Shown here one piece after another: positions 2,426-34,207 of a DNA stretch of 38,148 nt. A model generated the notes under the pieces. It had not been told where the DNA came from and did not search any database. It saw nothing but the letters and a program-made list of their open reading frames with translations. Source of the stretch: Thermoleophilia bacterium (GTDB lineage Bacteria > Actinomycetota > Thermoleophilia > Gaiellales > SKUG01); NCBI GenBank assembly GCA_025964465.1, contig JAOPYS010000211.1, positions 1 to 38,148 on the forward strand, given 5' to 3'. Position 1 is the first letter of the stretch, and every line of letters begins with the position of its first letter. A program made the position numbers and the translations under genes.

Positions 2426-2446
2426 TCCCCACCGGATCGATCACCA

Positions 2447-2487
2447 CGAGCCCGACGGTCTGAGACCGGTTCGGGCTCGTTCTCGTT
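2447..2487 (+). terminator. Candidate intrinsic terminator downstream of rpoZ
   Basis: Inverted repeat CGAGCCCGA(c)GGTCT / GAGACCGGT(t)CGGGCTCG at 2447-2479. The 9-bp outer stem CGAGCCCGA/TCGGGCTCG continues into an inner GGTC/GACC pairing. A T-rich tail TTCTCGTT follows. It starts 21 nt after the rpoZ stop. Confidence 0.55.
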
Positions 2488-2669
2488 GCGGGTGTCCGAC
2501 ACCTCGGTCATCATCTCGCGGTGCCGGCCGCGACCGAACTCCCGCTTGCAGTCGAGCCATCGGCCCAGCCGAAGCTGCAATGTGTCCAGTCTGCGCGCGT
2601 TGACTTCAGGTTCTGGGGCACAAGCGTCGATACGTCCCTCACGGGCGAGCGACTGGGTGGTCCCCTCCG

Positions 2670-5600
2670 GTGACACGATCTGCACAGCGAGTCGAAGCAT
2701 TGCCGCGCCCTGCGGTCGCTTCGCCTGTGCGCCCGAACCTCGAGCTGGTCCCGGATTCGGCACCGACGAGCCGGCTCCTGCTCGTGCTTCCCGTCCTGAC
2801 GATCGTCATTCTCGCCCTCGCATCGCTCGCCGTCGTCCAGACCGTCCGCCACGGCCAGCGCACCGGCCAGTGGACGCCGTCGACGTCATTCCTGAACGAG
2901 GCTCGACCGCTGCCTGACTTCGTCAGCACGCCCCTCGGCGACCCGGTGGCCGGCCGCGCCTGGAAGTCCGCCGCACGATTCCCCGCAGCGCTGGGTGAGC
3001 CGCTCCAGGGCGGGTTCAGTGCGACGCAGCCGCGCCAGGTCGGGTTCGGGATGATCGGGGCGGCCCCCACCCTCGACCGCTCCGACTACCAGCAGGGCGT
3101 GCGCTTCACGACCGCCGAGTACGACGTCGTGATGGATGCCAACGCCCCCGACGCCACCATCCGCGAGCAGACGGTCGTCCGCGAGCACCAGGGCCTCAAG
3201 ACCTGGCGCTGGAACGCCTACGGCCCCGGCCCGCTCACCGTCGCGAGCGACGGTTCCATCCACTTCGGCAACGGCGGCCGCATCCTGGCGCCGGTGCTCT
3301 ACACCGAGCGTGGCACGCGCATCGCCATGCCCGGCCTCGCATGGCGCGTGGACGGCATGCAGTTCTCGCTCACGCTCGACGACTCGCACCTGGCGCTGCC
3401 GTACGTGATCGACCCCGACTCCATCGCCCCGATCATCGCGATCCAGGGCATCACCAGTGCGAGCCCGTGTACGTACGTGTCGTCGCCCACGAACATCTAC
3501 GTCCGCTCGAAGGGCTGCGCCGGCAGCCTCACGGTGCGCGCCAAGGCGTTCGACCCCTTCGAGGGCGTCAACGACTTCCCCGACCCGATCGGTCCGGCGT
3601 GCGCGCCGACCGCCACGTGCGACCAGAACCCGGTCGGCCTCGGCACGGGCACGACGGCCGGCACGTACGGCGTGGCCTTCAACCCCGCCCCGCCTGTCCT
3701 CAACACCACCGGCACCGCGAACTGGACCGGCGCCTCCACGGTCTACCAGGCCGGCGCCCCCCGGGGCCTCAAGCTCCAGTGCTGGCTCGACGGCGGGTTC
3801 AGCGGCCCGAGCTCCACGGGCACCGACACGCGCATCGACTACGACGCGCAGACGTTGGGCACGGCGCAGGGGTTCCGCAACCAGCACACCGACGGGGCCG
3901 GCCAGCCGCCGCGAACGATCACGAGCTCCGGCGGCCACAACGCATCCGACATCTCGTGCTACTGGACCGGCTACATCACGCCGCGCGGCAACAACACCGG
4001 CACCTATGGCTTCCAGACGTACTCCGACGACGGCATCCGCCTCGACATCGGTGCGAGCGGCGTCAAGGGCAACGAGGGTGGGTGGACGGTGGAGAACGGC
4101 TGCGGCGGCCCCACGCCGACCAGCTGCTTCTGGAGCGCGCACGGACCGAACTGGAGCGGGGTGTGGACGGGCGGCAACGGCGCCGCCAATACCGCACCCG
4201 CGACCATCAACATGGCGACCCAGGACGATGCGAGGGCGCTCACCGTCTCCTACTTCGAACGTGGCGGGCAGTCCGCGACCGGGCTGATCTGGGACCCCCC
4301 GGGCACGCCGACCCTCGACCACGGCGCGATCGGCGCCAAGCCCAACTACGAGGTCGTTCCTTCGGACGACTACGTGCAGGAGATCTACTACGACCAGACC
4401 TACACCTGGGCCTCCGACAACAACGATCCGCTCGCGCAGCAGAACGCCGTCACCGTCACGGCTCGCGATGCCGGCGGCCGCACGGCCAACCCCACCACGA
4501 CGGCCCCGACGACCCAACCCTTCACGATCTGGACCGACAACGACATCCCGGAGCCGATGAAGGCCTGGAGCATGACGGTGGCGCCGAACTGGACCACCAA
4601 CGCCAACTGGACGAACGACAACACGATCGCGTTCAACAAGCAGGACGACACGGACGGCACGACCGGCGGCACGCAGTCCGGAATCGCCCCGGGCACCGCG
4701 GGCATCGTGTTCCGGCGCATCTTCGCTCCCCTCGATCCCGTCACGCACGACTGCGGCGTCCCGCAGCCGGCCCAGGACATCACCACGACGGCCGGCTTCA
4801 CCTACAACACGGCAACGGCCCAGAGCTACACCGACACCGTGGCGGACGGCTGCTACTACTACGACTACACGCGCAGCGACCGCGTCGGCAACCAGGCGAT
4901 CTCCAGGATGACCCTGACCGCCGACCCCGCCGACACGAGCACGTGGCTGCGCGTCGACACCACCAAGCCCGTGTGGTCGCCCGGCAGCTTCGCCTTCACC
5001 GCGCAGCCGGGCTCCTCCAGCTACGTCTCGTGGGACGGCAACACGACGACGCGCACGATGTTCTACAACCCGACCGTCTCCGGCGCCGTGAAGGTCTCGG
5101 CGGGGTTCACCGACGACGGCCGGGGCGTGGATCGCGTCCTGTTCCCCGACCCTGACGGTGCCGGCAGCGGCTGGCCGCTCGGCGTGGTCAACGACACGAC
5201 CGACAACAACCCCGCCCCCTACTCCGGCATCTTCAGCTGGAACATCGGGGCCACCAGCCCCGGTCTGCTGACCGCGCAGGCCTACGACCTGGTGTGCCCC
5301 GGCACCGGATCACCCAATTACACGGGCTACACGGCCGGCGGCTGCACGACCACGCCGACCATCGCCAACGGGCCGACGAACCTGACGTACACGATCACGG
5401 CCGACAGCTCCACCCCGACGGGCGGGACGTTGTTCACGCAGAAGCCGTCGCCCGGGTGTGGCACCAACATGGCCAACCTCGACTACTTCAGCTCGAACAT
5501 CTGTGTCACGCGCGGCGGTTCGGCGATCACCGACACGGGATCCCAGCCGGACTTCGCCAACGCGAAGTTCGAGCGTCGCGAATCGAACTTCGTCGCCGGC

Positions 5601-8600
5601 GCGTGCGACCCGATGACCAACACATGGGCGCTCGTCCCGGGCTCGACCCTGAACCCGCCGGCCTCGATCTCCGACACGTCGACCACGACGGGCAAGTGCT
5701 ACGAGTACCGGTACGCGATCCCCGACAAGGTCTCCAACTGGTACTACCTCACCAACGGTGTCGTGATCCGCAAGGACACGGTCGCGCCCCTGGGCGTGAT
5801 CAACGTGATCACCCCCAACCCCACCAGCGGCAACGTGACGATCTCCGGCTCGGCCGCCGACGCGGCGTCCGGCGTCGAGCACGTCGAGCTGCGCTACGAC
5901 TCGCCGACGGCCGGCACGACGTGGGTGACGTACTGCCCCAACCCCCCGGTGAGCGGCGGCAACTGGTCGTGCACCGTGGACACGTCCGGCTTCGTGCCGG
6001 ACGGGACGTACACGTTCCAGCTGACGGTGTTCGACTTCGCCGGCAACACCTTCATCCCGGCGACCGAGACCGTCGTGCTCGACAACTCCGCGCCGACCGT
6101 CAACACGTTGACGCTGACACCCAATGCGAGCCCGACGAAGCAGTTCGCGGTCAATTGCGCGCTGCCGTGCACCCCGCGCATCTACTACAACAACTCTGCC
6201 GGCGTCACCGGCAGCTTCGACCTCACGACGACGGCGACCGACGCGCAGACGGGCATCGGGTCCGTCATGTACGACGACATCGACGGCGTCGGCACCGCCT
6301 GGTCCCCAGCCGGGTCGGTCGACTCCAGCTCGCCCTACACCACGACCTTCGCATGGGCGTCCGGCGCGACCGCCGGCCCCTTCCTCAACGCCACGGTCGC
6401 CAACGGCGGCGGCAAGACGGTGACGCAGGGGTTCCAGGTCATCGCGGACTCGACCGCGCCGACGGGCGGGACGATCACATCACCCGCAGCGGCCTACAAC
6501 GTCCTGAGCGTCCCCGTGTCCTTCACCACCGGCACGGACGGGGCCGGCTCGGGCATCGGGCCGGTCACCGTCGAGCGGCGGTCCGGCACGCTCACGGGCG
6601 GCACGTGCAACCCAGCTGGCGGATTCGCGCCCGTCACCCTCGTGGCCGGCAACGACACCAGCGTCGTGAGCGGCAACTGCTACGAGTACCGCGTCCTGGT
6701 GAGCGACAACGTCGGCAACGTCTTCACGTCGCCGATCACGACCCCGACGAAGATCGACACAGTGCCCCCGACGGGCTCCATGACGAGCTCGGTGCCCTCG
6801 CCGTGGTCCGGCACGGTCGCGATCTACGGCACCTCGGGTGACACGAACTCCGGCGTGTCCGGCATCACCGTCACGCGGACGGGCACCGCCACGCCGCTCT
6901 GCAACAACCTGGCACCGGCGACGTGGGGCACGAGCAGCCCCGGCTGCCCCTTCGACACCACGACCGTCACCGACGGGCCGTACACGATCACGGGCGTGAT
7001 CAAGGACGTCGCCGGCAACACCACGACCTTCACGATGAACGTGATCGTCGACAACACGGCGCCGTCGATGAGCTTCAACGTCTTCACCGAGGGCGCCGGT
7101 GCGCAGTACCAGGCCGACGACGCGGGCAACCCCGCGAAGCACTGGTTCAACAACGCGTTCGGCGGTTCGTTCACCGTGAGCGTGCACGCGAGCGACGGTG
7201 GCGGCACCGGCGTCAACAACGTGACCTTCCCCGGCCTGCCGCCGTCGGGCTGGACCAACGGCAGCCTGGTCGACACCACGCTCGTCGCCCCCGACATCTA
7301 CGACGCGACGTACACGTGGACCGCGTGCACGGTTCCCGCGTGCGACCCGGGCTCGCGCACCGCGACCGGCACCGACAACGCCGGACGCACGGCGACCCAG
7401 AGCTTCATCGTGCAGGCCGACACCACGGTGCCGACCGGCGGCTCGATCACGCCACCGAACGGCGCGCAGAGCGCGACCAGCGCCATCATCCCGTTCTCCG
7501 TCGGTACCGACACGCAGTCAGGCATCGACCTCACCAACGGCTACATCATCCGCCGCGCCCAGGCCGGCATGACCGCCGGCGTGTGCAACGCGATGGGCGC
7601 CTTCACGCAGGTCGGTCCCGTCGCACCCGCCGGGCCCAGCTACACCGACACGGGCCTGGTCGACGGCCAGTGCTACCAGTACGAGCTGGTCGTCACCGAC
7701 CGGGTCGGGCGCACGACGACGTACGCCAACACCAACAAGGTGATCATCGACACGGGCCTGCCCGGCGGCACGATCAACGGCCTGCCCGGCTACGTCTCCG
7801 GCGTCATCGCCTTCTCCGGCACCGCGACCGACGCAGCGACCGGCCCGGCCGCGATCACGCTGACCTGGGCGGCCTCCCCCGGCGGCACGCCCACCGGCAC
7901 GGTCTGCTCCGGTGCCGGGCCGCTGGCGGTCGTCCCGGCGAACTCCACGACGTGGAGCTGCCCGGGCTTCAACACCGCCTCGCTCGCGGACGGCGTCTAC
8001 ACGATCAACCTGAGCGTTCGCGACGCCGCGAACAACAACAGCATCCCCAACAGCATCCAGACGACGATCACCGTCGACAACACCAACCCCTCCGTCACCT
8101 TCACGGGCTTCACGCCCGGCAGCGGTCCCAACTTCCAGTCGGTGACCGGCACGACGCTCTGGTTCAATCCCGCGCAGTCCGGCTCGGTCACGGTCTCGGC
8201 GACGGCGACCGACGGCGGCTCGGGCATCAACAACGTGCTCTTCCCCGACATCGACGGCGGCGGCGGCTCGCTTTGGACGCCCGCCGGGTTCGCCGACTCG
8301 TCGTCGCCCTACAGCCAGTCGTTCTCCTGGACGGCCGGCGCCACGTCCGTCGGCCCCCAGACGATCATCGCGACCGACAACGCCGGGCGCACCTCGACCG
8401 CGGCGTTCACGGTCTCCCCCGACACGACCGCCCCGGCCGGTGGTTCGCTGACCGTCACCGACCAGACGATCAACACGACCACCAACTCGGGTGCGATCAC
8501 CTACACCTCGGGCACCGACGCGCAGTCGGGCATCCTCAAGCGCGAGGTCTGGCGTTCGCAGGCGGTCTACAGCAACGGCACGTGCGGGTCCTACTCCGTG

Positions 8601-29600: not shown

Positions 29601-32600
29601 CGCCTGACCACCGCGCCCAACACGACCGCCACGCTCAACGCGTCCGCCGGCCTCGCCAACCCGCAGGTCACCGTCAACGGCGCCGGCGTCACCGCGCTGA
29701 CGTTCGACTCGAGCAACTGGTGGACGACGCAGGACATCGTCGTCACGGCGATCGACGACGCGGTCGACGAGGTCGACCCGAGCAGCACGAACGTGTCGTT
29801 CACGGTCACGAGCCCCGATCCGCTCTACGCGCCGCTGCTGGTCGCCGACCAGGTCTTCAGCATCAAGGACAACGACACGGCCAAGATCTCGATCGCGCCC
29901 GAGAACGCCGCGCCGACGGTCTCCTCCACGGACGTCACCGAGGGCGGCGTCACCGACCGCATCGTCGTGACCCTCTCGTCGCAGCCGACCTCCAACGTCT
30001 CCGTCACCCCGAGCGCCGCGCCCGGGCCGATCGGGCTCGTCAACGACCTGACCTTCTCGGCGCCGCTGGTGTTCACCCCCGCGAACTGGAACACGCCCCA
30101 GTACGTGACGGTGACCGGCTTCGACGACAACATCGCGGAAGGCCCCGCACCCGAGGTCGTGCCGATCTCGTGGGCCTTCTCGAGCACCGATCCCTTCTAC
30201 TCGGCCCTGCCGACGCCGATCAACCCGGCCACGGGCCTCGCGGCGGGCGCCGAGAAGGCGTCGGTCACCGACAACGACCAGGCCGCCATCCAGTTCGACC
30301 AGGCCGGTCCGTTCAACGTGAAGGAAGGCCAGCCCGGCCACAGCTGGACCGTCGTGCTCAAGTCGCAGCCGGCCAACAACGTGACGATCAAGTTCCAGGT
30401 GAGCAACGGCGACATCGCCATGGCCAACGACACCTTCACCTTCACGCCCACGAACTGGAACGCGCCGCAGACGGTCACCGTCAACGCGGTGGACGACGAC
30501 ATCGACGAGGTCGACGGCGAGACCGCGCAGATCTCGCTCATCGTCACGAGCCTCGACCCCGGCTACAACGGGGCCGTCCTCTCGCCGTTCGACGTCACGA
30601 TCGACGACAACGACACGGTCGGCATCGTGTCGGACGAGACGGCGCCCGAGAACACCACCGAGGGTGGCGCTCCCGCGACGTGGAAGATCCACCTCGCGTC
30701 GCAGCCGCTGTCGCCGGTGACGATCTACCCGACGCCCGACCCGACGCAGCTGACCAGCTCGGTGGTGGCACTCACCTTCCTGCCGTCCAACTGGAACACG
30801 GACCAGACCTACACGGTCACCGCGATCGACGATCCGTTCGCCGAGGGCGTGCACCACGCGGCGGTCACCTACAACGTGACCAGCCCCGACGCGCTGTACA
30901 ACGGCATGACCAAGTCCAGCACCGACGTGCGCATCACCGACAACGAGACGGCCGGCGTCAAGCTCTCCAAGACGCGCGTCCACGTCGCCGAGGGCGGGTT
31001 CACCGACACCTATACCGTCGTGCTCACGTCGCAGCCCGCCGGGCCGGTGCGCATCGTGATCGCCGGCGACGCGGACGCCGTGCCGTCGCTGCAGAGCCTG
31101 AGCGACCTGGACACGTCGACGAGCACGGTCACGTTCGACATCGATCCACTGCTGTGGAACGTGCCGGTGGTGGTGGTCGTGACCGCGGTCGACGACCGCA
31201 TCTCCGAGGGCACGCCGCACACGGGCACGCTGCACACGGTCGTGGCGAGCGCGACCGACCCGGCCTACAGCACCTCGGCGCTGGTCGACCCGATCGTCGT
31301 GCCCGACGTCGAGGCGCTCATCGACGACAACGACGTCGCCGGCATCGAGGTCGTGCCGACCAACAGCAGCACGAACGTCACCGAGGGCGGCGCCACCGAC
31401 ACGTACAACGTGCGCCTGCGCAGCGTGCCGTCGAACATCGTCACCGTTCGGATGTTCCCGGACGACCAGGTCACGGTGAGCCCGGCGTCCCTGACGTTCG
31501 ACAGCGGCAACTGGGACACGTGGCAGTCGGTGACCGTCGCCGCGGTGGACGACGCCAAGGTCGAGGGCTTGCACCAGGGCCTCATCAAGCACGTCGTCGA
31601 CAGCCTCGACCCGTTCTACGACGGGATGCGCGGCGACAACATCAAGGTCGACATCACCGACAACGACGCAGCCGGCGTCAAGGTCGACATCGCGAAGGGC
31701 ATCCTCTACGTCGTCGAGGGCGGCGTGTGCGACAAGGCGAGCGTGTCGCTCACCGCACAGCCGGCGCAGCCCGTGACGATGAAGATCCTCCCCGACCCCG
31801 ACAAGGACGTTCGCGTCATTCCGGAGATCGGCGTGACCTTCACCTCGGAGAACTGGAACATCCCGCAGGAGATCACGGTCTGCGCGATCGACGACAACGT
31901 CTACGAATCGGACGAGATCAAGAACCTCAAGGTCCGCACGTTCAGCAACGACCGCTTCTTCAACAACGGCAGCTGGCCCGACGTGACCGTGCAGATCAAG
32001 GACAACGACGGCGGCGTCATCACCAAGAACGAGCCCTACGACGGGCGTGACCTCGAGGTCTACCGAGCCGGCTTCAAAGCGGCGAACTTCACGATCCGTC
32101 TCTCGCAGAAGCCGACCAAGCCGGTGTACGTGTACGTCATCCTCCCCAAGGAGTTGGACACGCGCGGCGCGAACAAGAAGTCGCACCAGAAGCTGGTCCT
32201 GTTCGATGGCAAGGGCCCGAAGGGATGGCAGCTGCCGCGCACGATCCGCGTGTACCCGAACAAGGACGGTTCGGGCAAGGGCACCAAGCGCCTCAAGATC
32301 ACGTTTGCCGTGCGGTCCGCTGACCGGCAGTTCCACCTGGCCAAGGTCAAGCCGGTGTACGTGCGGATCTCCGAGCGCTGGAAGCCGGGCACCTCGTCGC
32401 AGTCGCGTGACCGCACGGCCCTCGGCGCGACCAAGGCTCCGGCCCCGGCTCCCGCACCCAAGCCCACGACCGCCACGCCCGCCGAACCGAAGCCGGTGGC
32501 GCCGAAGCCCGCCGCTCCGGTCGCACCCGCGCCGGTGACCGCCACCCTGCCCGCGACGCTGCCGGACACGGTGCTCGCGACGCTGCCGCCCGAGCCGGCG

Positions 32601-32996
32601 ACGTTCGACCCGGCCTCCCTCGTCGGTGACGCGTTCGCCCAGGACTGGGCGAAGTACCCGGACGGAACCGAGGCGAAGGGCGGCACCATCCGCCTCACGA
32701 AGCTCGCGGAGGGTTCGCGCGGCGGGTTCACCACGTCCGCCGAGGCCGCGAAGCTCGCGCGCACCACGCGCGCCGCCAAGCTGGGCACCGCCGCCGCGAC
32801 CGCCCGCTGGGTCGTCGTCGAGGGCGCCGACCGCCGCTTCCACGTCTACGAGGCCGAGCTCCTCGCGGACGCCACGAAGGTGACGGCCGCTCCCCTCGAG
32901 GCGGCCGCCACGCTGTTCGTGTTCGGCCCGGCCCACGCCAGCTGGCGTGACGCGTCCAACGCCTGGCGCGCGGGTCGCGACACCGCCAGCTCCTGA
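2670..32996 (+). CDS. Giant (10,108 aa) modular cell-surface protein: PA14-like domain, about 26 Ig-like tri-modular super-repeats, Calx-beta-like array, basic C-terminal region (putative adhesin/fibril)
   Basis: A single open frame of 30,327 nt, with strong GC3 codon bias throughout and no stop or frameshift. Conserved protein motifs recur in exact codon phase along 25 kb (see the repeat features). The GTG start at 2670 is taken from the ORF track and has only a weak purine-rich SD (GGGTGG), so the exact start is uncertain. The stop is TGA at 32994-32996. Confidence 0.85.
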   Translation: MTRSAQRVEALPRPAVASPVRPNLELVPDSAPTSRLLLVLPVLTIVILALASLAVVQTVRHGQRTGQWTPSTSFLNEARPLPDFVSTPLGDPVAGRAWKSAARFPAALGEPLQGGFSATQPRQVGFGMIGAAPTLDRSDYQQGVRFTTAEYDVVMDANAPDATIREQTVVREHQGLKTWRWNAYGPGPLTVASDGSIHFGNGGRILAPVLYTERGTRIAMPGLAWRVDGMQFSLTLDDSHLALPYVIDPDSIAPIIAIQGITSASPCTYVSSPTNIYVRSKGCAGSLTVRAKAFDPFEGVNDFPDPIGPACAPTATCDQNPVGLGTGTTAGTYGVAFNPAPPVLNTTGTANWTGASTVYQAGAPRGLKLQCWLDGGFSGPSSTGTDTRIDYDAQTLGTAQGFRNQHTDGAGQPPRTITSSGGHNASDISCYWTGYITPRGNNTGTYGFQTYSDDGIRLDIGASGVKGNEGGWTVENGCGGPTPTSCFWSAHGPNWSGVWTGGNGAANTAPATINMATQDDARALTVSYFERGGQSATGLIWDPPGTPTLDHGAIGAKPNYEVVPSDDYVQEIYYDQTYTWASDNNDPLAQQNAVTVTARDAGGRTANPTTTAPTTQPFTIWTDNDIPEPMKAWSMTVAPNWTTNANWTNDNTIAFNKQDDTDGTTGGTQSGIAPGTAGIVFRRIFAPLDPVTHDCGVPQPAQDITTTAGFTYNTATAQSYTDTVADGCYYYDYTRSDRVGNQAISRMTLTADPADTSTWLRVDTTKPVWSPGSFAFTAQPGSSSYVSWDGNTTTRTMFYNPTVSGAVKVSAGFTDDGRGVDRVLFPDPDGAGSGWPLGVVNDTTDNNPAPYSGIFSWNIGATSPGLLTAQAYDLVCPGTGSPNYTGYTAGGCTTTPTIANGPTNLTYTITADSSTPTGGTLFTQKPSPGCGTNMANLDYFSSNICVTRGGSAITDTGSQPDFANAKFERRESNFVAGACDPMTNTWALVPGSTLNPPASISDTSTTTGKCYEYRYAIPDKVSNWYYLTNGVVIRKDTVAPLGVINVITPNPTSGNVTISGSAADAASGVEHVELRYDSPTAGTTWVTYCPNPPVSGGNWSCTVDTSGFVPDGTYTFQLTVFDFAGNTFIPATETVVLDNSAPTVNTLTLTPNASPTKQFAVNCALPCTPRIYYNNSAGVTGSFDLTTTATDAQTGIGSVMYDDIDGVGTAWSPAGSVDSSSPYTTTFAWASGATAGPFLNATVANGGGKTVTQGFQVIADSTAPTGGTITSPAAAYNVLSVPVSFTTGTDGAGSGIGPVTVERRSGTLTGGTCNPAGGFAPVTLVAGNDTSVVSGNCYEYRVLVSDNVGNVFTSPITTPTKIDTVPPTGSMTSSVPSPWSGTVAIYGTSGDTNSGVSGITVTRTGTATPLCNNLAPATWGTSSPGCPFDTTTVTDGPYTITGVIKDVAGNTTTFTMNVIVDNTAPSMSFNVFTEGAGAQYQADDAGNPAKHWFNNAFGGSFTVSVHASDGGGTGVNNVTFPGLPPSGWTNGSLVDTTLVAPDIYDATYTWTACTVPACDPGSRTATGTDNAGRTATQSFIVQADTTVPTGGSITPPNGAQSATSAIIPFSVGTDTQSGIDLTNGYIIRRAQAGMTAGVCNAMGAFTQVGPVAPAGPSYTDTGLVDGQCYQYELVVTDRVGRTTTYANTNKVIIDTGLPGGTINGLPGYVSGVIAFSGTATDAATGPAAITLTWAASPGGTPTGTVCSGAGPLAVVPANSTTWSCPGFNTASLADGVYTINLSVRDAANNNSIPNSIQTTITVDNTNPSVTFTGFTPGSGPNFQSVTGTTLWFNPAQSGSVTVSATATDGGSGINNVLFPDIDGGGGSLWTPAGFADSSSPYSQSFSWTAGATSVGPQTIIATDNAGRTSTAAFTVSPDTTAPAGGSLTVTDQTINTTTNSGAITYTSGTDAQSGILKREVWRSQAVYSNGTCGSYSVPAFYALTVASPIVDSGLVSGFCYQYELHEYDKVSNVRTYNSAGTVRVDTVAPTGAVASLPAGPWGGTVLVNGTAGDTLSGVNNVIVTYDGPGTNDGTVCASPSLTGPANSKTWGTPGGCSWNTIALGLPDGSYIINIQVFDVAGNSVMGTSRTEIVDNNAPTPFTHLDYAEGAGGNFLYWNAVPGTPMYYNPTGAATFTVRMTAVDAGTGMNHVAFPSLGANWTPVGANVGGASPYSFTYSYTSSPANPGAAVATAYDNAGNTRTGNFTVTPDPAAPTGATLSVPGGIQSATSASIAFSTGTDALSGLGSWSLERRSGTLAGNVCTSWTGFTPVGGVSPPSPFNDTGLVSGFCYEYQLITKDRVDNAATVTDPTTFTIMVDGGNPSATMNPPAASISGNGNAITGTASDVQTAIDHVTVTYSGPASGTMCASIPTSPPGGGTWSCAFDTNPGPALPDGVYTLTVTSYDAANNNSGPVTRTVIVDNNGPVIAPLVLTPTSGTNFIFVAGTTAYFNPAGAGTIRVDASATDAGAGMQQITYPSMGFPAWTGGGPDTTVPYQMPYSWSTHAPGAANPGPKTLTAVDNAGNTSTANFTISQDATPPTGGTIDTTPQVRNTAGTIIALTNGTDAASGVKSRVLQRSQTGYASGVCNAGGWTVPATIATSPASPYNDTTIANGFCYRYQFVLTDNVDNVVTVADPDTVAFDNTAPTGTISGTPVGPSSGSITITGDAQDLGSRVASVDVRYKSGPSPNGSICLAPTLTPAAPTTNGTWSCGWTTTALLDGTYTLELTVTDVAGNTYVYTRTIQLDNNPPAVTFNSFVPTTNLQYQYWNGVVGQPLYYNPAFGGSFNVLINNVDGGTGAASVSFVDPDAGAAGWSLPQLSDTTPPTPFSAAFNWTAGAAQPGTQTATGFDVAGASATTTFNILQDTGLPTGGSISYPTRYTNAASATVTFAAGSDALSGVGSTAIWREQTTLAGGVCNAGGWTGFTSLVANPATPYADTTTADGFCYHYQLRVTDRVGNVATYNSTGPTEERVDRSPPSGNVNSAPVGPASGAVPLTGVSSDGASGINYVDVTYSGPASGSICASQPANWSCSWATGLLPQGVYTITATIRDLAGNVYVTSRTLTIDNTPPSIAFASFTEGTNPNYQFAVGSTMYYNPAGTGGFSVGMNATDAGSGMQRVDFPALGAGWLPGGTQSATIPAGTIYSGAYSWSATPTPPGTKSATAFDVAGTSATAGFTVTPDTSAPSGGSVSSPTVIQTTAAVTVTFGTGGDTGSGVGFWQVQRRATAYSNGVCATGAWLPWGPLVASNNAPGSTFVDTTVADATCYEYRLEVRDNVDNIMTVPATGITPVDLTNPNGAIDPGTPASPFSGTVSVIGTASDAASGVQSVAVTYSGPASGTICPTATAPGGNWTCSWPTGGLADGTYTLTLVVRDNAGRFSAPTTRVVVVDNLAPVIAFKAFAESSGAIYQYPNSSAPLNKIYVNTAQTGTTQVQFTVTDGGTGVQDLAFPGLGSNWSAGGADSTVTAPNQYDWNYTWTAGAADPGVKTVTARDNANNTSTSTFIVESDITAPGGGGLTVPNTTSNNASPTIAISASSDTQSGIFTTVLERRFGLLSPSGCAAPGGWTPIATNPAASYVDGPLTSGRCYEYHVLVTDNVGNVQTIPSASVYKLDTQAPTGNINVLPADPFSGTVTISGDASDALTGVSFVDVAYDGPGTTDGNVCLSPALSAAPDPRLWSCPWPTPLVDGTYILSLVVHDLAGNVSAPFTRTVIVDNVAPTISFLDVQETGGNNFQFTDVPAAKHYYNPNQTGTFIVRMNAADGGTGVKQVDFPTLAAPWTGGGVDNTGPTPYTATYGFSAVTLPSPGLQNAIARDNAGNTATASFQIEADSAAPTGGSIVVPNTITKLTSVTIGSTASSDSQSGIASVQLQRRQTTYANGVCDTASWSLFADHGPANPGTSYTSTVAGGFCYQYQRVVTDNVGNKQLDPSTNTVSVDTQAPNGSFNPTPAGPISGAATITGVASDSHSGVASIALTYSGPASGTMCSATLAPPPDPRGWTCAWDTTLLADGTYTMSLVVTDIAGNVSATVTKSMLVDNQAPTVTFLDFQEASGNGFQHWTGGASTKLYVNPTGTGRTNVRFTATDAGTGMNRIDYPVIGGGWTAGGSAAGAGPTFSFGYDFVAPVTGQGLKTVTAFDNAGNPRTATFDVELDSLPPAGGSITPPAGTATSATNITIPWTTATDSQSLLGSTEIKRRSTTYANGVCNAGAWTLPTSLSTTPASPYVDTTTSNGTCYEYSIIFTDNVGNANTIVGTNIVRVDRTIPGGTFNPTPASPFGGTVAVTGTSFDNESGVQSVDVTYTGAATGNICLGTTPTASWSCSWATGGVPDGTYIMHLTVKDFANNTYVLDKTIIVDNVAPVSSFGGFVEVTGAPYQFAPTGGTTMYVNPAQSGEFTVNINATDGGTGMNRVDFPTFAPATGWTPPGGSDATTPWSLNYLWSGPGAGQPGTVQAKAYDNAGNFSNVSFRVENDTAPPTGGSLTPLNITTNAAAHAVAFTLGADSQSGLGTVLLQRDAAPFSAGTCGAFPGTWVTIATNPTSPFSDTTTATGTCYKYQLIVNDNVSNPQTISSTNTFRVDRVVPTGSIDPAPASPFSGVKTVTGISGDATSGVSKVDVRYLGPATGNVCLGPASPTAWSCNWDTTTLADGTYTLELTVTDNAGNTFVTTRTPIVVDNNPPVATFVGFVEGTNGGSQFAVGSTMYVNTNTGFFGDFSVEVGATDGGTGVNGVTFPINGAGWTPAAPGTDNSGPYTQSYGWTAGAANPSLRTATATDNAGNSSTVTWTVTPDNLPPSGASISSPNGTTNAASTTVTFNKGTDGLSGVGTWRIQRAMRGITAGACTGAFSWVDVGPVNPGGTTWADSTIPDATCASYRLHVIDNVGNEVFQPNGSEVLIDRTNPTGLINPPNPTGVSGTGVAITGTSADAESGIAFVDVKIQGVAGAPGTVCLSPPSPTSWSCNWNSTLVPDGTYVIELTVHDKAGNTFITTQPVIVDNLPPVVGVATWTPQLNPSYQYVAAAAPSLLWFNPAFTGSARLDVAACDTSGIAGATFPDADGAGSLWAPSGGSTDTTADNTSAVCPAGQGGVLSGTYNWSVGATTNAGLNVVVTDNVPNSSSKTFEVRRDNTAPTGGSLNYSSARTKLNSSGNITFGSGTDGLGSGVRSFQVERQSYTLLADACTSPAGWTPVAPANTVSPVVDTTMVDGHCYEYRLVVTDNVGNVATYVDLQSDIVRFDQTVPSGAINPTPAGPIGGASNVFTGTSGDVHTAVDHVTLSWTGPQAPGSGAMCADPVPTASWTCTWNTTGFADGSYTMILTVYDLAGNIGNASRVITVDNQPPIVAFDSWTQSTNPQWQHVSGTRLYFNPGQTGGAQLRIQASDSGTGVNRVDFPDLDGGLSLWTPGATSNSAGPNPYLNTYTWAAGAASSGAVNAVAYDNAGNSSTVGFDVVADGVGPTGQTVNPPNSFTSSTTATVAFTTGSDALSGVGGWRIERQNAPLTNGSCGSYLGWGPVGGPDPSSPFVDTGLLDGTCYQYRLQVTDNVGNSTPATSLNEVKVDTSKPTGAINPAPASPWSGNAVPVAATSADTGSGVANARLSFAGPATGTICTEATAPAAFSCNWNTLVGVPDGTYTITLTVTDRAGNANNPGPAYQRTVLVDNNGPVIAFNSFVEGANPQFQFIKAGTTMYVNPLGNGGFDVLFDATDAGAGVNRVDFPDLGLNWSPSGGGSDTTGPTPYSQTYSFNTGNVAPSNPVDPIVTAVDNASNSSTATFKVLHDASAPTGGTLNVPALLTNGTSATIAWTPGTDALSGLGRVELNRRQRPYTGGSCTGAYGPFAVIATNPTPSYADTTIADGFCYDYSLTQYDNVENSSTTVDPAGDVVRVDRTPPSGTIDPLPAGPWSNTVTIGGTAVDTNSGLVDMDLTYGTPTGNACLNMAPGTPWSCVFDTHSMPADGTYTFTLVLTDAAGNVNSVPITRTVLIDNGGPTVSAVKWVETVNPQYQYVPTLDLTKLWFNPAQGGSARLEVTATDSGSGVDRVDFPTIGTGWTPAGATDNSAPNPYTNDYTWVSGASTLGSRNVTAVDLAGNATTSPFVTVPDPNLPTGGSISYVNGFTNSATPTITFTPGTDVDSGIGSWAISRETTSLTAGVCGTYGGATVVGGANPSGTTFADSGLVDGSCYRYSLIVTDNVGNVRTYTSPSEVKVDTTIPTGAIDVAPVGPVSGLTAFTGISGDGGSGVNTLTMTYTGPGTVPPCTVALPATVNPWSCGINTASYTDGTYTLSLVVTDRAGNNSTPFTRTVVFDNLPPALSFSSWVETTNSQYTHPVGNRMWFNGAQSGAFDLFMGAVDTGSGVANVTFPALGAGWTPGAPFVDASAPSPYTVSYAFSPSAANPGAQNAIGTDVAGNTGLGAFIVSSDTAPTTGSSLSYTGGNTSAASTSLTFSAGTDGTGSGFGRTQLQRRDATLSSSTCTSWTPFANLGAANAPSPYVDSTTADGRCYEYQLLVFDNVENIETVTPGTIVKVDRTKPVGAFTAPTAGQFISGTFAVTGTHSDTGSGVATFDITYAVTNSGSVCAAQTQASPFSCSWITPADGPYDLTLVVKDNAGNTSVPVTVSVIVDNNPPTVTFDSWLEGTNPQYQFAAGNKMWFNPANSGDFRLNMAATDTGSGVNRVEFPALGAGWTPAAMFADNVPPTPYQSMPYGWTPGASSPGAKTALGFDNVGNSATGAFSVQADSVPPSGATISYPGGWSTSTTVGVNFTTGTDLGGSGIGHHQLQRQSSPLVAGVCTAYGAWANIGPASPPVGTPYTDSTLADGFCYKYQVQVWDNVENRFDQGDSAEVKVDSTKPTGTIDPLPAYVSGNALSVTGTHADAASGVATFSVTYSGTATGSICAPTAAANPSPWTCTWDTTNAATPDGPYDITITVVDQAGNISVPFIESVIVDNGLPTIAFDSWVEGANPQFQNAIGNKMYFNPAQTGAFTLRMAATDAGSGVNRVDFPALGTGWSPAAPASDTSGPSPYDMVYAWTGPTPADPGAKVATAVDNVGNQKTGAFAVEADSTAPTGSTIVANIPPSGYTSGASVDVTFAPGTDSQSTTGEWQLQRQPGTLAAGTCTMSGSWANLGPLSPPSGVPYVDSSITDGQCYQYRINVLDKVGNVQTVTAPGTLKVDRTPPTGTIDTPVGPFVSGPITIGGTHADTLSGVASFTLTFTGTSSGTVTCSGAQPSPWSCPLVTNSIAEGLHTFLLTVTDLAGNVSAPITKDLTVDNLPPTILFDHWVENGGANYEYATTDTMYYNPAGAGSFTLHMTAADTGSGVNRVEFPALGTGWTPAAVTPDATATGTPATFDQMFTWTAGASAPTDPQNATAFDNVGLTATAGFHVLPDAVGPTGGAAVYPAATSNAATFDIGITNPTDGLSGLDTVQLERESAPFTGAACGTTWSPFTAIGPVNPTGTTVTDTTTVDGYCYRYRLLTVDHVGNVSTFPSTNEIRVDRTAPTGAFSTFDMDGPGPLAAVPAVAGMYVGNNFVINGSATDSGSGLTTVGVYATPTAGTEFVIEDPLLTGPNPWSTRWDSRAKPDGAYTLTAKVRDLAGNVALITINVIVDNTPPATALLDFVPGANPTFQYADNANDIQWYNPAVGGDFGVRVEATDSPGSGMARVDFPAIAAGWSPIPGFTDSSVGAVPPNSWGDTTNYAWTPTSTASNATPYNATAWDLAGNSRTVAFSVKPDSVAPTGGVISYPGGYTNVASVAVSVTSGTDAESGLRDAQIERRAANLVGDVCSTPYSAWASIGTPILTPTGTFTDTTVVSGRCYEYQVVVSDNVGNRTPATTVGPTIVKVDTDLPLGGFTAPAGPSVSGAVPVTGTSSDVTTGVAKVEVAYDGPGASDGTICTLNAPPTTVSPGWSCPAWDTTVASVTPDGTYVLTLTVTDLAGNVIASPKPTKTVIVDNTPPVIDSLTLFEGTTPLFEEIAPSGTEIFFNPAQAGNFRAEVVAHDDGTGMNHVAFPDIDGAAAGWTPDALSVAPGATVTTPYVANYSWVPGVTSLGTVNATAFDNAGASKTAPFKVTADATAPTGGSISTTNGWLVGPDVTVTFGTGTDDVAGVTGSGIGSWSIERRVAPIVAGVCDTANWSAAWTTIGGASPATPTLVDSTTLNNNCYQYRLAQVDKVGNRSTLDAETSPGVPMIVMVDRNAPTGVVNTPTTTWVSGPTNPVDGTVADGESGVARVDVRAVNIADPTLSNNICLSTAMTPAPAFGAGVATAAWAGCNWNTTIATADGNWKIEIEVIDLAGNRAKYSRTYLVDNLAPVTAFKQFVVGVNPGYQHIDPINPALLYINGSLSGTFTVEATSNDGAGAGVNDVTFPSLGAAPWATLPSSGIDTTVVPTDTYSVDYQWGTGATNPGVQTLTAHDKVTVPAGGHASTADFEVRVDNNAPTGGAVSYTNGWNPSSTVAIPFTAPSEPLGESGMASTQLQRMTGTIVGGACVMPAVPVWNNVGAANPTSPAPDSGLVDGMCYQYRIAGTDNVGNVAYYDDPTSFVLVDATAPTGTISNIPAGSGPANALSGDISTPPFSGTTSDGLNGSGVFSATVTFRDSSGTPKTCTITAPTPLNPWTCAWNTLSPFIASGTFTMELSVRDVAGNVSLPGTITRTVVIDNTPPTMSLSGLVEGTNAQYQFADLPGQTMWYNSNFGGDFRVEMDATDTPAGVHFVDFPDPDTTGTSWQLTGGTQQLTVKPSTTSTYSKQFTWTSTAADPGSQLATAYDWAAAAPPALSPNNSITAGYTIKDDPTDPTGTSISYFNGYVLPGAMSVTFDAGTDGTGVGIDPTLTRIERRSAPVSAPAGVMPTCPGPLTAAWSLWTTVVTGATSPWVDPTAVPGTVDGTCYEYRVYASDRVGNETPAVAPVAPSTAIVAQPGFVVTRDPACPPQLTEDQLAPGTPSCTLHVRLTTAPNTTATLNASAGLANPQVTVNGAGVTALTFDSSNWWTTQDIVVTAIDDAVDEVDPSSTNVSFTVTSPDPLYAPLLVADQVFSIKDNDTAKISIAPENAAPTVSSTDVTEGGVTDRIVVTLSSQPTSNVSVTPSAAPGPIGLVNDLTFSAPLVFTPANWNTPQYVTVTGFDDNIAEGPAPEVVPISWAFSSTDPFYSALPTPINPATGLAAGAEKASVTDNDQAAIQFDQAGPFNVKEGQPGHSWTVVLKSQPANNVTIKFQVSNGDIAMANDTFTFTPTNWNAPQTVTVNAVDDDIDEVDGETAQISLIVTSLDPGYNGAVLSPFDVTIDDNDTVGIVSDETAPENTTEGGAPATWKIHLASQPLSPVTIYPTPDPTQLTSSVVALTFLPSNWNTDQTYTVTAIDDPFAEGVHHAAVTYNVTSPDALYNGMTKSSTDVRITDNETAGVKLSKTRVHVAEGGFTDTYTVVLTSQPAGPVRIVIAGDADAVPSLQSLSDLDTSTSTVTFDIDPLLWNVPVVVVVTAVDDRISEGTPHTGTLHTVVASATDPAYSTSALVDPIVVPDVEALIDDNDVAGIEVVPTNSSTNVTEGGATDTYNVRLRSVPSNIVTVRMFPDDQVTVSPASLTFDSGNWDTWQSVTVAAVDDAKVEGLHQGLIKHVVDSLDPFYDGMRGDNIKVDITDNDAAGVKVDIAKGILYVVEGGVCDKASVSLTAQPAQPVTMKILPDPDKDVRVIPEIGVTFTSENWNIPQEITVCAIDDNVYESDEIKNLKVRTFSNDRFFNNGSWPDVTVQIKDNDGGVITKNEPYDGRDLEVYRAGFKAANFTIRLSQKPTKPVYVYVILPKELDTRGANKKSHQKLVLFDGKGPKGWQLPRTIRVYPNKDGSGKGTKRLKITFAVRSADRQFHLAKVKPVYVRISERWKPGTSSQSRDRTALGATKAPAPAPAPKPTTATPAEPKPVAPKPAAPVAPAPVTATLPATLPDTVLATLPPEPATFDPASLVGDAFAQDWAKYPDGTEAKGGTIRLTKLAEGSRGGFTTSAEAAKLARTTRAAKLGTAAATARWVVVEGADRRFHVYEAELLADATKVTAAPLEAAATLFVFGPAHASWRDASNAWRAGRDTASS
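2775..2846 (+). other. N-terminal hydrophobic segment of the giant protein (signal peptide or signal-anchor helix)
   Basis: Residues 36-59, LLLVLPVLTIVILALASLAVVQTV, are preceded by Arg35 and followed by RHGQR. This is the only long hydrophobic stretch I see in the protein. A possible ALA-S cleavage motif lies inside it, so cleavage versus anchoring cannot be decided by eye. Confidence 0.6.
3770..4300 (+). other. PA14-like (carbohydrate-binding/adhesin-type) domain-coding segment
   Basis: Signature spacing of PA14 domains: CYWTGYITPRGNNTGTYGFQTYSDDGIRLDIG (W-x-G-x-I-x-P...G-x-Y-x-F...DDG-x-x-L-x-I), then ...ALTVSYFERGGQSATGLIW (V-x-Y-F-E-x-G-G-x-A-x-x-x-L-x-W). Recognised by eye only. Confidence 0.6.
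4400..29510 (+). repeat. Coding tandem array of about 26 diverged super-repeats (about 950-1100 nt each), each built of three Ig-like modules (A-B-C)
   Basis: The in-frame Cys codon of the C-module motif G-x-C-Y-x-Y-x-x-x-x-x-D-x-V-[GSDE]-N occurs at 4851, 5697, 6678, 7671, 8664, 9657, 10635, 11625, 12585, 13548, 14520, 15489, 16440, 17391 (variant C-A-S-Y), 18399, 19368, 20343, 21309, 22266, 23223, 24201, 25167, 26205, 27243, 28311 and 29415. Module A: VD-x-x-x-PTG...SG-x-V-x-[IV]-x-G-x-[AS]-x-D-x-x-SGV...C...W-[ST]-C-x-W...DG-x-Y-T-[LIF]...D-x-AGN...VDN-x-x-P. Module B: F-x-E...YQ...[MLW]-[YFW]-x-NP...G-x-F...A-x-D-x-G-[ST]-G[VM]N-x-V-x-FP...W-[TS]-P...PY...Y-x-W-x-x-GA...DNAGN...F-x-V-x-x-D-x-x-[AP]PTGG. 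Module C: GTD-x-x-SG...R[RQ]...C...CY-x-Y. There are 24 A modules. The first two units are incomplete. Confidence 0.9.
29510..32010 (+). repeat. Seven tandem Calx-beta-like units (about 110-135 aa each)
   Basis: Recurring pattern: [IV]-x-D-N-[DE]-x-[AG]-[GKA]-[IV]... V-x-EGG-x-x-D/T...V-x-L-x-SQP-x-x-x-V-x-[IV]...L-T-F-x-x-x-NW-[NWD]-x-x-Q-x-[VIY]-x-V-x-A-[IV]-DD-x-x-x-E...[LF]-Y. The unit-closing D-N-[DE] motifs lie near 29866, 30269, 30604, 30936, 31324, 31656 and 31998. The family was assigned by eye; cadherin-like or other beta-sandwich families are alternatives. Confidence 0.6.
32013..32430 (+). other. Lys/Arg-rich, visibly lower-GC degenerate unit of the giant protein
   Basis: The segment VITKNEPYDGRDLEVYRAGFKAANFTIRLSQKPTKPVYVYV...KKSHQKLVLFDGKGPKGW...NKDGSGKGTKRLKITFAVRS...AKVKPVYVRISERWKPG contains about 18 Lys and about 12 Arg in about 140 aa. 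Lys is rare in the preceding 9,700 residues. It keeps a faint Calx-beta-like skeleton (F-T-I-R-L-SQKP-x-x-PV-Y-V). Confidence 0.6.
32436..32540 (+). repeat. Pro/Ala/Lys low-complexity linker
   Basis: APAPAPAPKPTTATPAEPKPVAPKPAAPVAPAPV, read directly from the frame translation. Confidence 0.8.
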
Positions 32997-33012: not shown

Positions 33013-33498
33013 TCAGCGCAGCCAGATCGCGACCGACTCGTCCTGCTTCTCCTGGATCTTCGCCGCCATCTTGGTGAGGTTCTCGTAGGTGCTCATCTGC
33101 ATCGTGTACTGCTGCAGCTTGGCCGGGTCCATCGTGCCGTTGCCGGCGGCGAGGTCGCCCTGGATCGCCTCCTGGATCTTGTTCATCCCGTTCTGGGCGA
33201 ACGCCGCGATCTTGGCGACGCCGCTCTTGAGCGCGTCGGTGATCGCCCCGCCACCGACGGCCGACGAGAAGTCGGCGCCGAGCTGCGGTCCGAACTTCGA
33301 CGTCACGAGCGCCTGTGCGGCGGCGTCGGAGGTCGACCCCGTGCCGGACGCGGGTGCGGGCGCCGGGTCGAAGCCGGTCTGCACCTGCGCCGCCGCCGAG
33401 CCGACCGGCGTGCTGGCCACCGGGAGGGCATAGGCCGAGTAGGCCGGCTGGAGGCTCGGCGAGGGCAGGAGGGCGGAGTACGGGCTGAGTGTCGTCAT
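33013..33498 (-). CDS. Hypothetical 161-aa protein: low-complexity Ala/Pro/Ser N-terminal half and helical-hairpin C-terminus resembling type III needle/filament-type subunits
   Basis: ATG at 33498 with the SD-like AGGGA 6 nt upstream, and codon bias consistent with its neighbours. The C-terminal 45 aa, GTMDPAKLQQYTMQMSTYENLTKMAAKIQEKQDESVAIWLR, resemble by eye the PrgI/MxiH tail (PSDPALLAAYQSKLSEYNLYRNAQSNTVKVFKDIDAAIIQNFR). The function is unproven. Confidence 0.6.
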   Translation of the reverse strand: MTTLSPYSALLPSPSLQPAYSAYALPVASTPVGSAAAQVQTGFDPAPAPASGTGSTSDAAAQALVTSKFGPQLGADFSSAVGGGAITDALKSGVAKIAAFAQNGMNKIQEAIQGDLAAGNGTMDPAKLQQYTMQMSTYENLTKMAAKIQEKQDESVAIWLR

Positions 33499-33642: not shown

Positions 33643-34044
33643 TCAGCCGGTGGTGCCGACCAGCAACTCGACGAGGTTGCCGAAGGGGTCGCGCAGCTTG
33701 CAGCGCGCGTCGGCGACCGGCTCGTCGGACCAGTCGACGGGGTGGCCGGCCTCTCCCAGCCGCGCCGCCAGCGCCTCGAGCGTCTCGAGGTCGCGCACCC
33801 GCAGGGCGGGGTGCCCCTTGGTCGACGGCACGAACGGCTCGAGCACACCGACGTGCAGGCCTGTGGCGCCGGCCCGGAACCAGCAGCCGCCGCGCGATGC
33901 GAGCACGCCGGGCTTGGGCACCTCGGGCAGCCCGAGCAGGTCGCCGTAGAACGCGCGCGCGGCGCCTTCTCCCCCACGCGGGCAGCAGACCTGGAAGTGG
34001 TCGACCCCGATCACGGGTCGGGAGGGGTGTTCGTCGTCGGCCAT
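33643..34044 (-). CDS. VOC (glyoxalase/bleomycin-resistance/dioxygenase) superfamily protein
   Basis: Contains IGVDHFQVCCP...ARAFYGDLLGL...GGCWF...GLHVGV...KGHPALRV.DLE.L..RL...G....W.......RCKLRDPFGNLVELL, the typical betaalphabetabetabeta VOC-fold motif order. I prefer the ATG at 34044 (MADDEHP) over the TTG at 34062 used by the ORF track. Confidence 0.7.
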   Translation of the reverse strand: MADDEHPSRPVIGVDHFQVCCPRGGEGAARAFYGDLLGLPEVPKPGVLASRGGCWFRAGATGLHVGVLEPFVPSTKGHPALRVRDLETLEALAARLGEAGHPVDWSDEPVADARCKLRDPFGNLVELLVGTTG

Positions 34045-34207
34045 TGCCGCGAGCCTACCCAACGCCCCGCCACGATCCCGGTGTGCGGCCCGCTGAGGGG
34101 GCCGATCTACCTCATACTCGGGGAAGGGGGCGGGAACACGTTCGGCCCGGCTCCGTGCCCTGCCGTGGTTGGCTGGGGCACCGGATCCGGGCCGAGTGCG
34201 GGGGGAT

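Follow-up and report, generated by a model that had tools for sequence, protein, structure and literature searches.

The stretch of DNA analysed here (the window: 38,148 nucleotides (nt), contig JAOPYS010000211.1 of assembly GCA_025964465.1, from a Thermoleophilia bacterium) carries a giant gene at 2670..32996 on the + strand, with 10,108 codons and a stop. It lies between a housekeeping block (1-2425), with the order pyrD, a gene for an mIHF-like H2TH protein, gmk and rpoZ, and a late flagellar block (33646-38056). Downstream, on the opposite strand, the order is a glyoxalase-like gene, fliW, flgL, flgK, flgN and a FlgJ-N-like gene. An earlier reading of the window from its letters and open reading frames (ORFs), hereafter the original prediction, saw in the giant gene a modular surface protein of extended shape. 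In what follows, residue i of the protein corresponds to nt 2670+3(i-1).

The ORF starts with GTG, and the ORF listing and translation show its sole stop at the very end. The G+C content at codon positions 1/2/3 is ~0.55/0.58/0.96 in all eleven consecutive 3-kb slices, and the value at the third position (GC3) stays within 0.93-0.98 along the gene, in a genome of 70% G+C. Calculated from base composition, a stop-free run of 10,108 codons would occur by chance with p ~1e-79. High-GC genomes also yield long spurious ORFs, and two long frames lie antisense to the giant gene, at 12273-23093 (-, 3606 aa) and 26196-32936 (-, 2246 aa). They were rejected as genes: their GC peak falls on their own codon position 1 (0.97) and they translate as R/G/A/V-rich sequence, which marks them as shadows of the real frame. 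Naive ORF finders could mis-call both as genes. The start codon is supported by the orthologues described below, all of which begin with GTG, TTG or ATG followed by the motif (V/L/M)TR(S/F)AQRxExLP; P0121 starts with Met at the matching position. The giant gene is real and intact, as was originally claimed. Its product has a predicted mass of 1.036 MDa, a pI of 4.27 and a net charge of -395.

Most of the gene consists of repeats of ~970 nt. Tandem Repeats Finder reported no tandem repeats, but its maximum period of 500 nt is shorter than the unit, and for this reason a self-BLASTN comparison was run. The DNA identity between units is 63-66% (~64%), the top high-scoring segment pair of >=200 nt reaches 73%, and the longest exact repeat within the 30-kb ORF is 27 nt. 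With units so diverged and exact repeats so short, collapse or expansion of the repeats during assembly is unlikely.

The protein opens with a conserved, Arg/Pro-rich tail (aa 1-35, 2670..2774), which carries the motif given above in the 11 orthologue N-termini that were aligned. It is followed by a hydrophobic segment (aa 36-59, 2775..2846), which could be either a signal-anchor helix or a signal peptide for Sec export. A Kyte-Doolittle scan, which places it at aa ~30-61, shows no other strongly hydrophobic segment in the whole protein. In all orthologues the hydrophobic stretch has 22-25 residues and leads into VRSGxRxG, and a small-x-Ala pattern precedes the latter in ~7 of the 11 N-termini. 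Next comes a beta-rich region, the N-domain (aa 60-360, 2847..3749), ending in a nearly invariant LPLPYVIDPD motif. An AlphaFold2 (AF2) model is confident over aa ~70-250, with a predicted local distance difference test (pLDDT) of 80-97, and the repeat-unit profile described below also picks out a relic-like stretch at aa 250-356. The N-domain has no Pfam or NCBIfam match, and a sequence search of the PDB gave nothing credible.

The unique head of the protein extends to aa ~560, and its second half (aa ~361-560, 3750..4349), which has Cys-containing insertions, appears to be a diverged, lectin-type PA14 domain. The evidence for this is indirect. Pfam PA14 (PF07691) scores 18.1 bits on the 760-aa head, with a cutoff of 24, and 29.3 bits on a 3,500-aa piece in which no single stretch rises above threshold. 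A head profile built from orthologues only, however, matches solved PA14 domains (6qe7 from RsgI3, E 1.5e-4; 6qdi, E 4e-4), and these alignments are collinear across the hallmark PA14 motifs. A canonical PA14 domain (E 1e-10 to 1e-22) stands at exactly the same position in smaller relatives that have the N-domain in common with the giant protein, and a Foldseek search with the head model retrieves RsgI PA14, PA14-bearing GH31 enzymes, Epa1/6/9 and Flo5.

The stalk begins with degenerate units, detected by hmmsearch with the unit profile: a relic at aa 563-742 and a truncated super-repeat at aa 756-1023 that retains modules B and C (region to aa 1032, 4356..5765). They are followed by 24 full super-repeats (aa 1033-8930, 5766..29459), each with three modules (A, B and C) related to immunoglobulin (Ig) domains. 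The full units are 317-359 aa long (~322 aa) and together provide 72 beta-sandwich modules. In their alignment (A1) the units are 35-46% identical to the reference unit, and 20 columns are invariant. Each module begins with (V)D-x-x-x-P-(T)-G and ends with D-x-A/V-G-N, so that invariant Asp/Asn residues stand at the module junctions, and there are four conserved Cys per super-repeat, two in module A and two in module C. Invariant Asp/Asn junctions of this type resemble the Ca2+ linkers of cadherins and of BIg domains.

Both profile and fold place the stalk among the bacterial Ig-like (Big_13/SiiE-type) domains. In Pfam it is matched by Big_13, Big_7, Big_3_3, Big_3_2 and DUF7743, with the Ig-like families scoring 64-183 bits and Big_13 the highest (up to 183). 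The super-repeat profile finds the SiiE BIg50-52 fragment, 2yn3, by sequence (E 2.6e-7). An AF2 model of one super-repeat, for which the 24 paralogous units served as the alignment, shows three beta-sandwiches with a pLDDT of 91.2 and a predicted TM-score of 0.82. Foldseek relates this model to chains of Ig/FN3/MG-type beta-sandwich domains; alpha2-macroglobulin and complement entries lead the ranking by E-value, while 2yn3 holds rank 2 with the best TM-scores (TMq 0.35, TMt 0.40) and a probability of 1.00. The protein thus has the tandem Ig-like/beta-sandwich stalk that is characteristic of fibrillar adhesins.

A second repeat family occupies aa 8964-9888, with eight units of ~105 aa. Seven of these (aa 8964-9773, 29559..31988) are acidic, with a pI of about 4, and display the motifs A-[IV]-D-D-x-x-x-E and I-x-D-N-D. 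The eighth (aa 9774-9888, in a region to aa 9900, 31989..32369) belongs to the same family but has lost the acidic motifs and is strongly basic (pI 10.3, net charge +16). Counting the relic, the truncated unit, the 24 super-repeats and these eight units, the chain has about 84 tandem beta-sandwich modules. Pfam Calx-beta (PF03160) gave no match at E<=1 on aa 8931-9760, and even the orthologue P0006 reaches only 23.6 bits, with a cutoff of 27. The units may nevertheless be regarded as a diverged Calx-beta-type domain, an assignment supported by transitive homology. A 1,178-aa C-terminal query retrieved 1,103 homologues, many of which contain PF03160 or bear the name Calx-beta or Na-Ca exchanger/integrin-beta4, and in three of the five homologues checked (P0004, P0015, P0028) the above-threshold Calx-beta stretches (47-73 bits) are in register with the unit profile derived from the window. 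A comparison of that profile with the PDB was uninformative, matching only de novo designed Ig proteins. The charge inversion of the last unit is conserved in P0005 and P0006, the two C-terminal orthologues, whose matching units have a net charge of +15. Among the 1,559 units of 120 homologues, a net charge of +8 or more was seen just twice (0.13%), in these same two terminal units. Judged from this comparison, the cationic terminal unit appears specific to the orthologue group of the giant protein.

The C-terminal end consists of a Pro/Ala-rich linker (aa 9901-9975, 32370..32594; 24% Pro, 21% Ala) and a tail domain of 133 aa (aa 9976-10108, 32595..32993). The tail is conserved in P0005 and P0006 (34-40% identity), the only two sequences found to carry it. 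In Pfam, NCBIfam, the PDB and the Kyte-Doolittle scan it showed no family match, credible PDB match, hydrophobic segment or sortase motif. Matches of the N-domain and tail to WIV_2, Mfa1 and cobalamin-binding entries, at E about 0.08-0.1, were set aside as noise. Metagenome contigs scanned with the tail profile yielded 288 pattern matches, but not one of these was confirmed. Word-indexed protein searches with the tail profile and with the N-terminal 760 aa found no match, but these negatives carry little weight because the index saturates on low-complexity composition: the tail search missed even P0005 and P0006, and an exhaustive HMMER search did find relatives of the head. No LPXTG-type motif was found near the C-terminus; the sole motif match in the protein is NPATG at aa 9185, and no hydrophobic segment exists at the C-terminal end. 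Repeats-in-toxin (RTX) sequences, as used by type I secretion systems (T1SS), were also looked for, and HemolysinCabind matched no segment of the giant protein. It did match one homologue (P0041), which indicates that the search was able to detect such repeats.

The outline of the original prediction is largely borne out by these results. It had described an N-terminal hydrophobic anchor or signal, some 300 aa without a known fold, a Pro/Ala linker before an orphan C-terminal domain of ~130 aa, and a scarcity of Lys until the C-terminal end, and each of these was recovered (Lys makes up 1.0% of the super-repeats and 13.4% of the basic unit). The tri-modular nature of the super-repeats was correctly recognised, although their number, given as about 26, is 24 full units with one truncated unit and relics. 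The PA14-like domain and the seven Calx-beta-like units, the latter also right in count, are upheld through profiles, relatives and homologues, while direct threshold matches in Pfam are lacking for both. The basic unit is present but is not a separate element, being the diverged eighth member of the Calx-like family. The wider claim of a giant modular extended surface protein now has codon statistics, Ig-like Pfam scores, a confident structural model and orthologues at the same locus on its side.

Relatives of the head are rare, with 38 detected in 1.84 billion representative proteins by the exhaustive HMMER search, five of them strong, orthologue-grade fragments. Scans of the GTDB species representatives and JGI metagenomes, made with a 7-sequence head alignment, uncovered orthologous 5' ends in both collections (L004, L005 and L006 in the former, L011-L013 in the latter). 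Altogether, orthologue fragments come from about eight loci (L002-L006 and L011-L013) in uncultured Thermoleophilia-type metagenome-assembled genomes (MAGs) and metagenomes, and two of the ORFs run without a stop as far as the examined stretch reaches, over at least 3,887 and 3,857 codons. The C-terminal orthologues P0005 (GCA_025964405.1) and P0006 (GCA_025964505.1) are Thermoleophilia MAG proteins cut at contig ends. Their alignments to the C-terminal query span 97-99% of it at 41-42% identity, and both proteins show seven acidic units and one basic unit, the linker and the tail domain.

Gene order is maintained on both sides. The upstream order from pyrD to the giant gene is kept in L004, L006, L011, L012 and L013, and the downstream order from the glyoxalase-like gene to the FlgJ-N-like gene is shared by the window, L002 and L003. 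Across these genomes the neighbours are 53-95% identical (mIHF, gmk and rpoZ 83-95%, FliW 80%, FlgK 64%, FlgL 53%), while the head and tail of the giant protein are only 41-49% identical. The giant gene diverges faster than most of its neighbours and yet is retained. When the window was compared unit by unit with L005, the positional counterpart was the best match for 9 of 10 units, with counterparts up to 61-66% identical and off-diagonal pairs at 31-51%. Such positional orthology implies that the repeat array is older than the split of the lineages and has not been homogenised. L005 (JAOPYW010000004.1, 30.4 kb) belongs to MAG RYN_238; its copy starts ~270 nt from the contig end, and the 3' end of the orthologue lies on a separate contig, L002 (JAOPYW010000147.1). 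The first 11.7 kb of the L005 contig were examined; if the whole 30.4 kb were ORF, this orthologue would match or exceed the gene in the window in length.

The domain vocabulary of the giant gene is shared by smaller paralogues (L007-L010, L014). Four of these (L007, L009, L010, L014) occur in the same MAGs or metagenome as the orthologues and code for at least 970-2,030 aa, their ends being cut. They combine the N-domain, PA14 and B/C-type Ig modules, with Calx-like units in L009, and the giant gene can be seen as an extreme member of a modular family.

Taken together, the architecture argues, with somewhat better than even confidence, for a Sec-exported giant fibrillar adhesin-type surface protein with its N-terminal head distal and its C-terminal module bound to the wall. 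The N-terminal segment would be a signal peptide of extended length that is cleaved off. Exported first, the N-domain and PA14 head would form a distal carbohydrate-binding tip, and the beta-sandwich modules would form a rod ~0.3 um long, as estimated from about 3.5-4 nm per Ig-like module. For comparison, the 53 BIg domains of SiiE span roughly 175-200 nm. Ca2+ probably stiffens the rod through the junction motifs (VDNxxP, DxAGN) and through the DDxxxE/DND loops of the Calx-like units, and modules A and C probably each contain one stabilising disulfide; the paired Cys suggest such bonds and would fit an extracytoplasmic location. The part exported last, comprising the cationic Calx-like unit, the Pro/Ala linker spanning the wall and the tail, may hold the fibre non-covalently on the anionic envelope. 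In soil-type Thermoleophilia the fibre would likely serve to attach the cell to surfaces that bear glycans, to other cells or to matrix, or would serve in aggregation.

Among the fibre scenarios, the polarity with a distal N-terminal head and a C-terminal anchor is favoured, though by no wide measure. Fibrillar adhesins of Firmicutes and Actinobacteria have their adhesive domain at the N-terminal end and their anchor at the C-terminal one, even where a sortase motif is lacking, and PA14 is ranked among their adhesive domains (PMC8286594). The Giant1-5 proteins of Apilactobacillus kunkeei offer a precedent, as they have neither a transmembrane (TM) helix nor LPXTG, and binding to the cell wall has been proposed for their positively charged C-terminal end (PMC12863079). 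To this Gram-positive rule and precedent are added the conserved cationic unit and the order of stalk, Pro/Ala linker and small domain, which is the layout of wall-spanning regions. A cleaved signal peptide and distal head are favoured because in P0130 (1,009 aa) the same head directly follows a classical signal peptide, and because small-x-Ala occurs in most of the aligned N-termini.

Several observations weigh against this picture. AF2 confidence is low for the PA14 portion of the head model, and the window's own segments stay below the Pfam gathering thresholds for PA14 and Calx-beta. Pfam, NCBIfam and hydropathy detect no known anchor in the giant protein (LPXTG, SLH, LysM, GW or a C-terminal TM helix). 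The probable binding of Ca2+ and rigidification of the fibre are read from motifs only, and the wall-binding role favoured for the C-terminal module from charge and analogy only. At the N-terminus, the 22-25 hydrophobic residues are TM-like in length, the candidate cleavage motif is not strictly conserved in the 11 sequences, and the tail on the cytoplasmic side is conserved, all of which would fit an uncleaved signal-anchor and so reverse the polarity.

This reversed arrangement is the strongest of the alternatives, a real but clearly less probable one. Here the N-terminus would be a signal-anchor of type II with a conserved cytoplasmic tail, the N-domain and PA14 would be located in the zone of the wall, where they would perhaps bind its glycan, and the cationic C-terminal module would be the distal, sticky tip, for minerals, extracellular polymeric substances or other cells. 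It would mirror the polarity of Gram-negative RTX adhesins, which are anchored at the N-terminus and carry their ligand-binding part at the C-terminus. Beyond the points above, it draws on the Arg residues flanking the hydrophobic stretch on both sides in all orthologues, the TRFAQRxExLP tail, the lack of a strictly conserved AxA site, the presence of a single hydrophobic segment in a protein in which no C-terminal anchor motif was found, and the TM-like helices with which the smaller relatives P0126, P0127 and P0142 begin. However, looping a chain of 10,000 residues through the wall from an anchored N-terminus would be topologically awkward, and the classical signal peptide of P0130 stands ahead of the same head. 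Conserved N-terminal extensions are also typical of the cleaved signal peptides of very large adhesins, for example ESPR and KxYKxGKxW. In addition, the adhesive domain of Gram-positive fibrillar adhesins is as a rule N-terminal and distal (PMC8286594).

A purely structural fibre is unlikely. As a spacer, sheath or coat it would set the distance between cells, or between cells and particles, or act as a shield, without a specific ligand. The number and register of units preserved between diverged genomes would fit selection on length, and the chain is extremely acidic and uniform, but the lectin-type PA14 and the conserved head suggest specific binding. There is also just one copy of the gene, and Pfam and NCBIfam detected no self-assembly domains of the S-layer type. 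A link to motility or to the flagellum, suggested by the adjacent fliW-flgL-flgK-flgN-flgJ-like genes, is very improbable. The giant protein SwmB, needed for swimming in Synechococcus, provides a loose analogy, and the flagellar cluster that adjoins the 3' end of the giant gene is the same in the window, L002 and L003. The genomes compared are close relatives, though (gmk 83-88%, FliW 80% identity), so that shared gene order carries little functional weight; moreover, the orientation is convergent with the glyoxalase-like gene in between, the upstream neighbours are housekeeping genes, and Pfam and NCBIfam find no flagellar domain in the protein. A filament for polymorphic toxins or contact-dependent delivery, with the ~130-aa C-terminal domain as the toxin, would account for a long filament and linker ending in a small unassigned domain, but has even less in its favour: the tail is conserved like the rest of the C-terminal region (34-40% vs ~41%) and not hypervariable, it matches no toxin family in Pfam, NCBIfam or the PDB, and there is no co-oriented downstream ORF resembling an immunity gene, the next gene in L002 and L003 being the convergent glyoxalase-like gene, 8-10 nt away. 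Least credible of all is an assembly artefact or decaying pseudogene, since, even though every retrieved orthologue breaks at contig ends inside the repeats and the locus is evidently hard to assemble, the frame is uninterrupted with uniform GC3, the units are only ~64% identical in DNA with no exact repeat above 27 nt, their order agrees with the independent assembly of L005, and synteny with independent assemblies holds at both ends of the gene.

Among the nearest parallels are the Gram-positive fibrillar adhesins, built of an adhesive head, a repeated stalk and an anchor (PMC8286594). With these the giant protein would share an N-terminal export signal and a lectin-type PA14 head at the N-terminal end, and it shares a long stalk of tandem Ig-like domains and a Pro-rich segment before the C-terminal end. 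The giant protein is 5-10 times longer than is typical for that group, has no LPXTG, SLH, LysM or other known anchor, and differs in its 322-aa three-module super-repeat and in a C-terminus where a Calx-like array is joined by a charge-inverted unit and by a tail specific to the lineage. With the giant, Ca2+-dependent BIg-repeat adhesins of Gram-negative bacteria (SiiE/MpIBP/LapA/LapF type) it shares stalk modules that are homologous or structurally similar to SiiE BIg (2yn3) and acidic Asp-rich junctions that suggest rigidification by Ca2+. Adhesins of that type can also include a sugar-binding PA14 module, and the PA14 head profile matches a Lap-type adhesin entry (6m8m). These adhesins bear their PA14 at the C-terminus, whereas it is N-terminal here, in an actinobacterial host, with no RTX repeats or T1SS signal found and export presumably by Sec. 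The A. kunkeei Giant1-5 proteins (PMC12863079) are similar in being very large, extracellular and Gram-positive, with an N-terminal signal, imperfect repeats, no TM helix or LPXTG and a positive C-terminal end, but they have 3,000-8,000 aa, are largely alpha-helical or beta-solenoid and possess DUF5776/SH3b-like C-terminal domains, and no sequence relationship to the giant protein was found. The 'large repetitive proteins' with multiple Calx-beta units (P0001-P0120, from Myxococcota, Cyanobacteria, Chloroflexota and others) share the ~105-aa unit with its DDxxxE/DND motifs at 29-37% identity; the sequences retrieved, many of them partial and 1,000-2,060 aa long, are made up chiefly of 7-17 such units, and these proteins have no head, no tri-modular super-repeats, no cationic terminal unit and no tail domain.

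Proteins of more than 10,000 aa are rare, as the original prediction stated, but it overstated the point. Giant genes have been documented, and outside Omnitrophota the most frequent host phylum is Actinobacteriota (bioRxiv 10.1101/2023.11.21.568195), so the finding is less surprising than first thought. The giant genes described there also belong to uncultured lineages and also include rare proteins >10,000 aa, but they code for many TM regions and for SecA-DEAD, enzymatic or LPXTG-adhesin domains, whereas the present protein has a single hydrophobic segment and is purely of beta-sandwich, lectin and Calx-like make-up. Giant adhesin-like proteins are thus a known, if rare, kind, and this is not a new kind of biological system. 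New features are the combination of the N-domain with a diverged PA14 head, the in-register 24-unit tri-modular stalk, the 7+1 Calx-like array with its conserved charge-inverted last unit, the orphan tail domain, and the occurrence limited to an uncultured Thermoleophilia-type clade in which no member has been characterised. A literature search on Thermoleophilia together with giant proteins or Calx-beta found no papers. The original prediction did not recognise the domain combination as characterised, and our searches turned up no homologue that is named or characterised.

Of all retrieved members of this megadalton surface-protein family, from poorly known and uncultured Thermoleophilia-type Actinomycetota, only the one in the window appears to be complete. 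As the other copies found are cut by contig ends or by the end of the examined stretch, it can serve as a reference for annotating fragments. It also shows that reliable assembly of a 30-kb repeat gene is possible once the units have diverged to ~64% DNA identity, and that arrays of this kind can be passed on in register and escape homogenisation. A known anchor is absent from about half of the predicted fibrillar adhesins (PMC8286594), and the conserved charge-inverted Calx-like unit with the orphan tail is a testable candidate for how anchor-less adhesins are held on the cell. More speculatively, the C-terminal module may be an undescribed non-covalent envelope anchor, or a cationic adhesive tip, of megadalton fibres in Thermoleophilia without sortase motifs, and the in-register 24-unit stalk a molecular ruler whose length is under selection; we regard this as a tentative proposal.

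The region between rpoZ and the giant gene (2426..2669, + strand) contains a terminator-like hairpin at 2457-2477. Its position behind rpoZ suggests that the giant gene probably has its own promoter within the ~190-nt leader. Six orthologous leaders were aligned and, in an otherwise diverged region, show an invariant CTGCAATG at 2575-2582 and a conserved CACGGGCGAG ~35 nt ahead of the giant gene start (about 2630-2640). These blocks are candidates for a promoter, operator or element of the 5' untranslated region; no Rfam family and no sigma-70-type promoter was found in 2426-2669.

At the other end, between the stop of the giant gene and the glyoxalase-like gene, a 161-aa ORF lies at 33013-33498 (-), with a GC3 of 0.95. 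It occupies a segment of ~630 nt that is missing from L002 and L003, where the flanking genes are 8-10 nt apart. The ORF has no Pfam match, its C-terminal ~60 aa being weakly similar to SctI, the inner-rod protein of type III secretion systems, at E 0.089, far below threshold. Its call is uncertain, as an overlapping ORF on the + strand (33089-33433) also has a high GC3.

Two observations concern the neighbouring genes in other data sets. The contig of L006 (JBPCMH010000037.1) is labelled as part of an Acidimicrobiales MAG, but its mIHF, gmk and rpoZ share 85-95% identity with their counterparts in the window and the Thermoleophilia MAG loci and stand in the same order; probably, to judge from these identities, the contig was mis-binned or the MAG is mislabelled. 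The FlgK of the window has an identical copy only on a 2.5-kb contig, L001 (Logan SRR13312995_205963).

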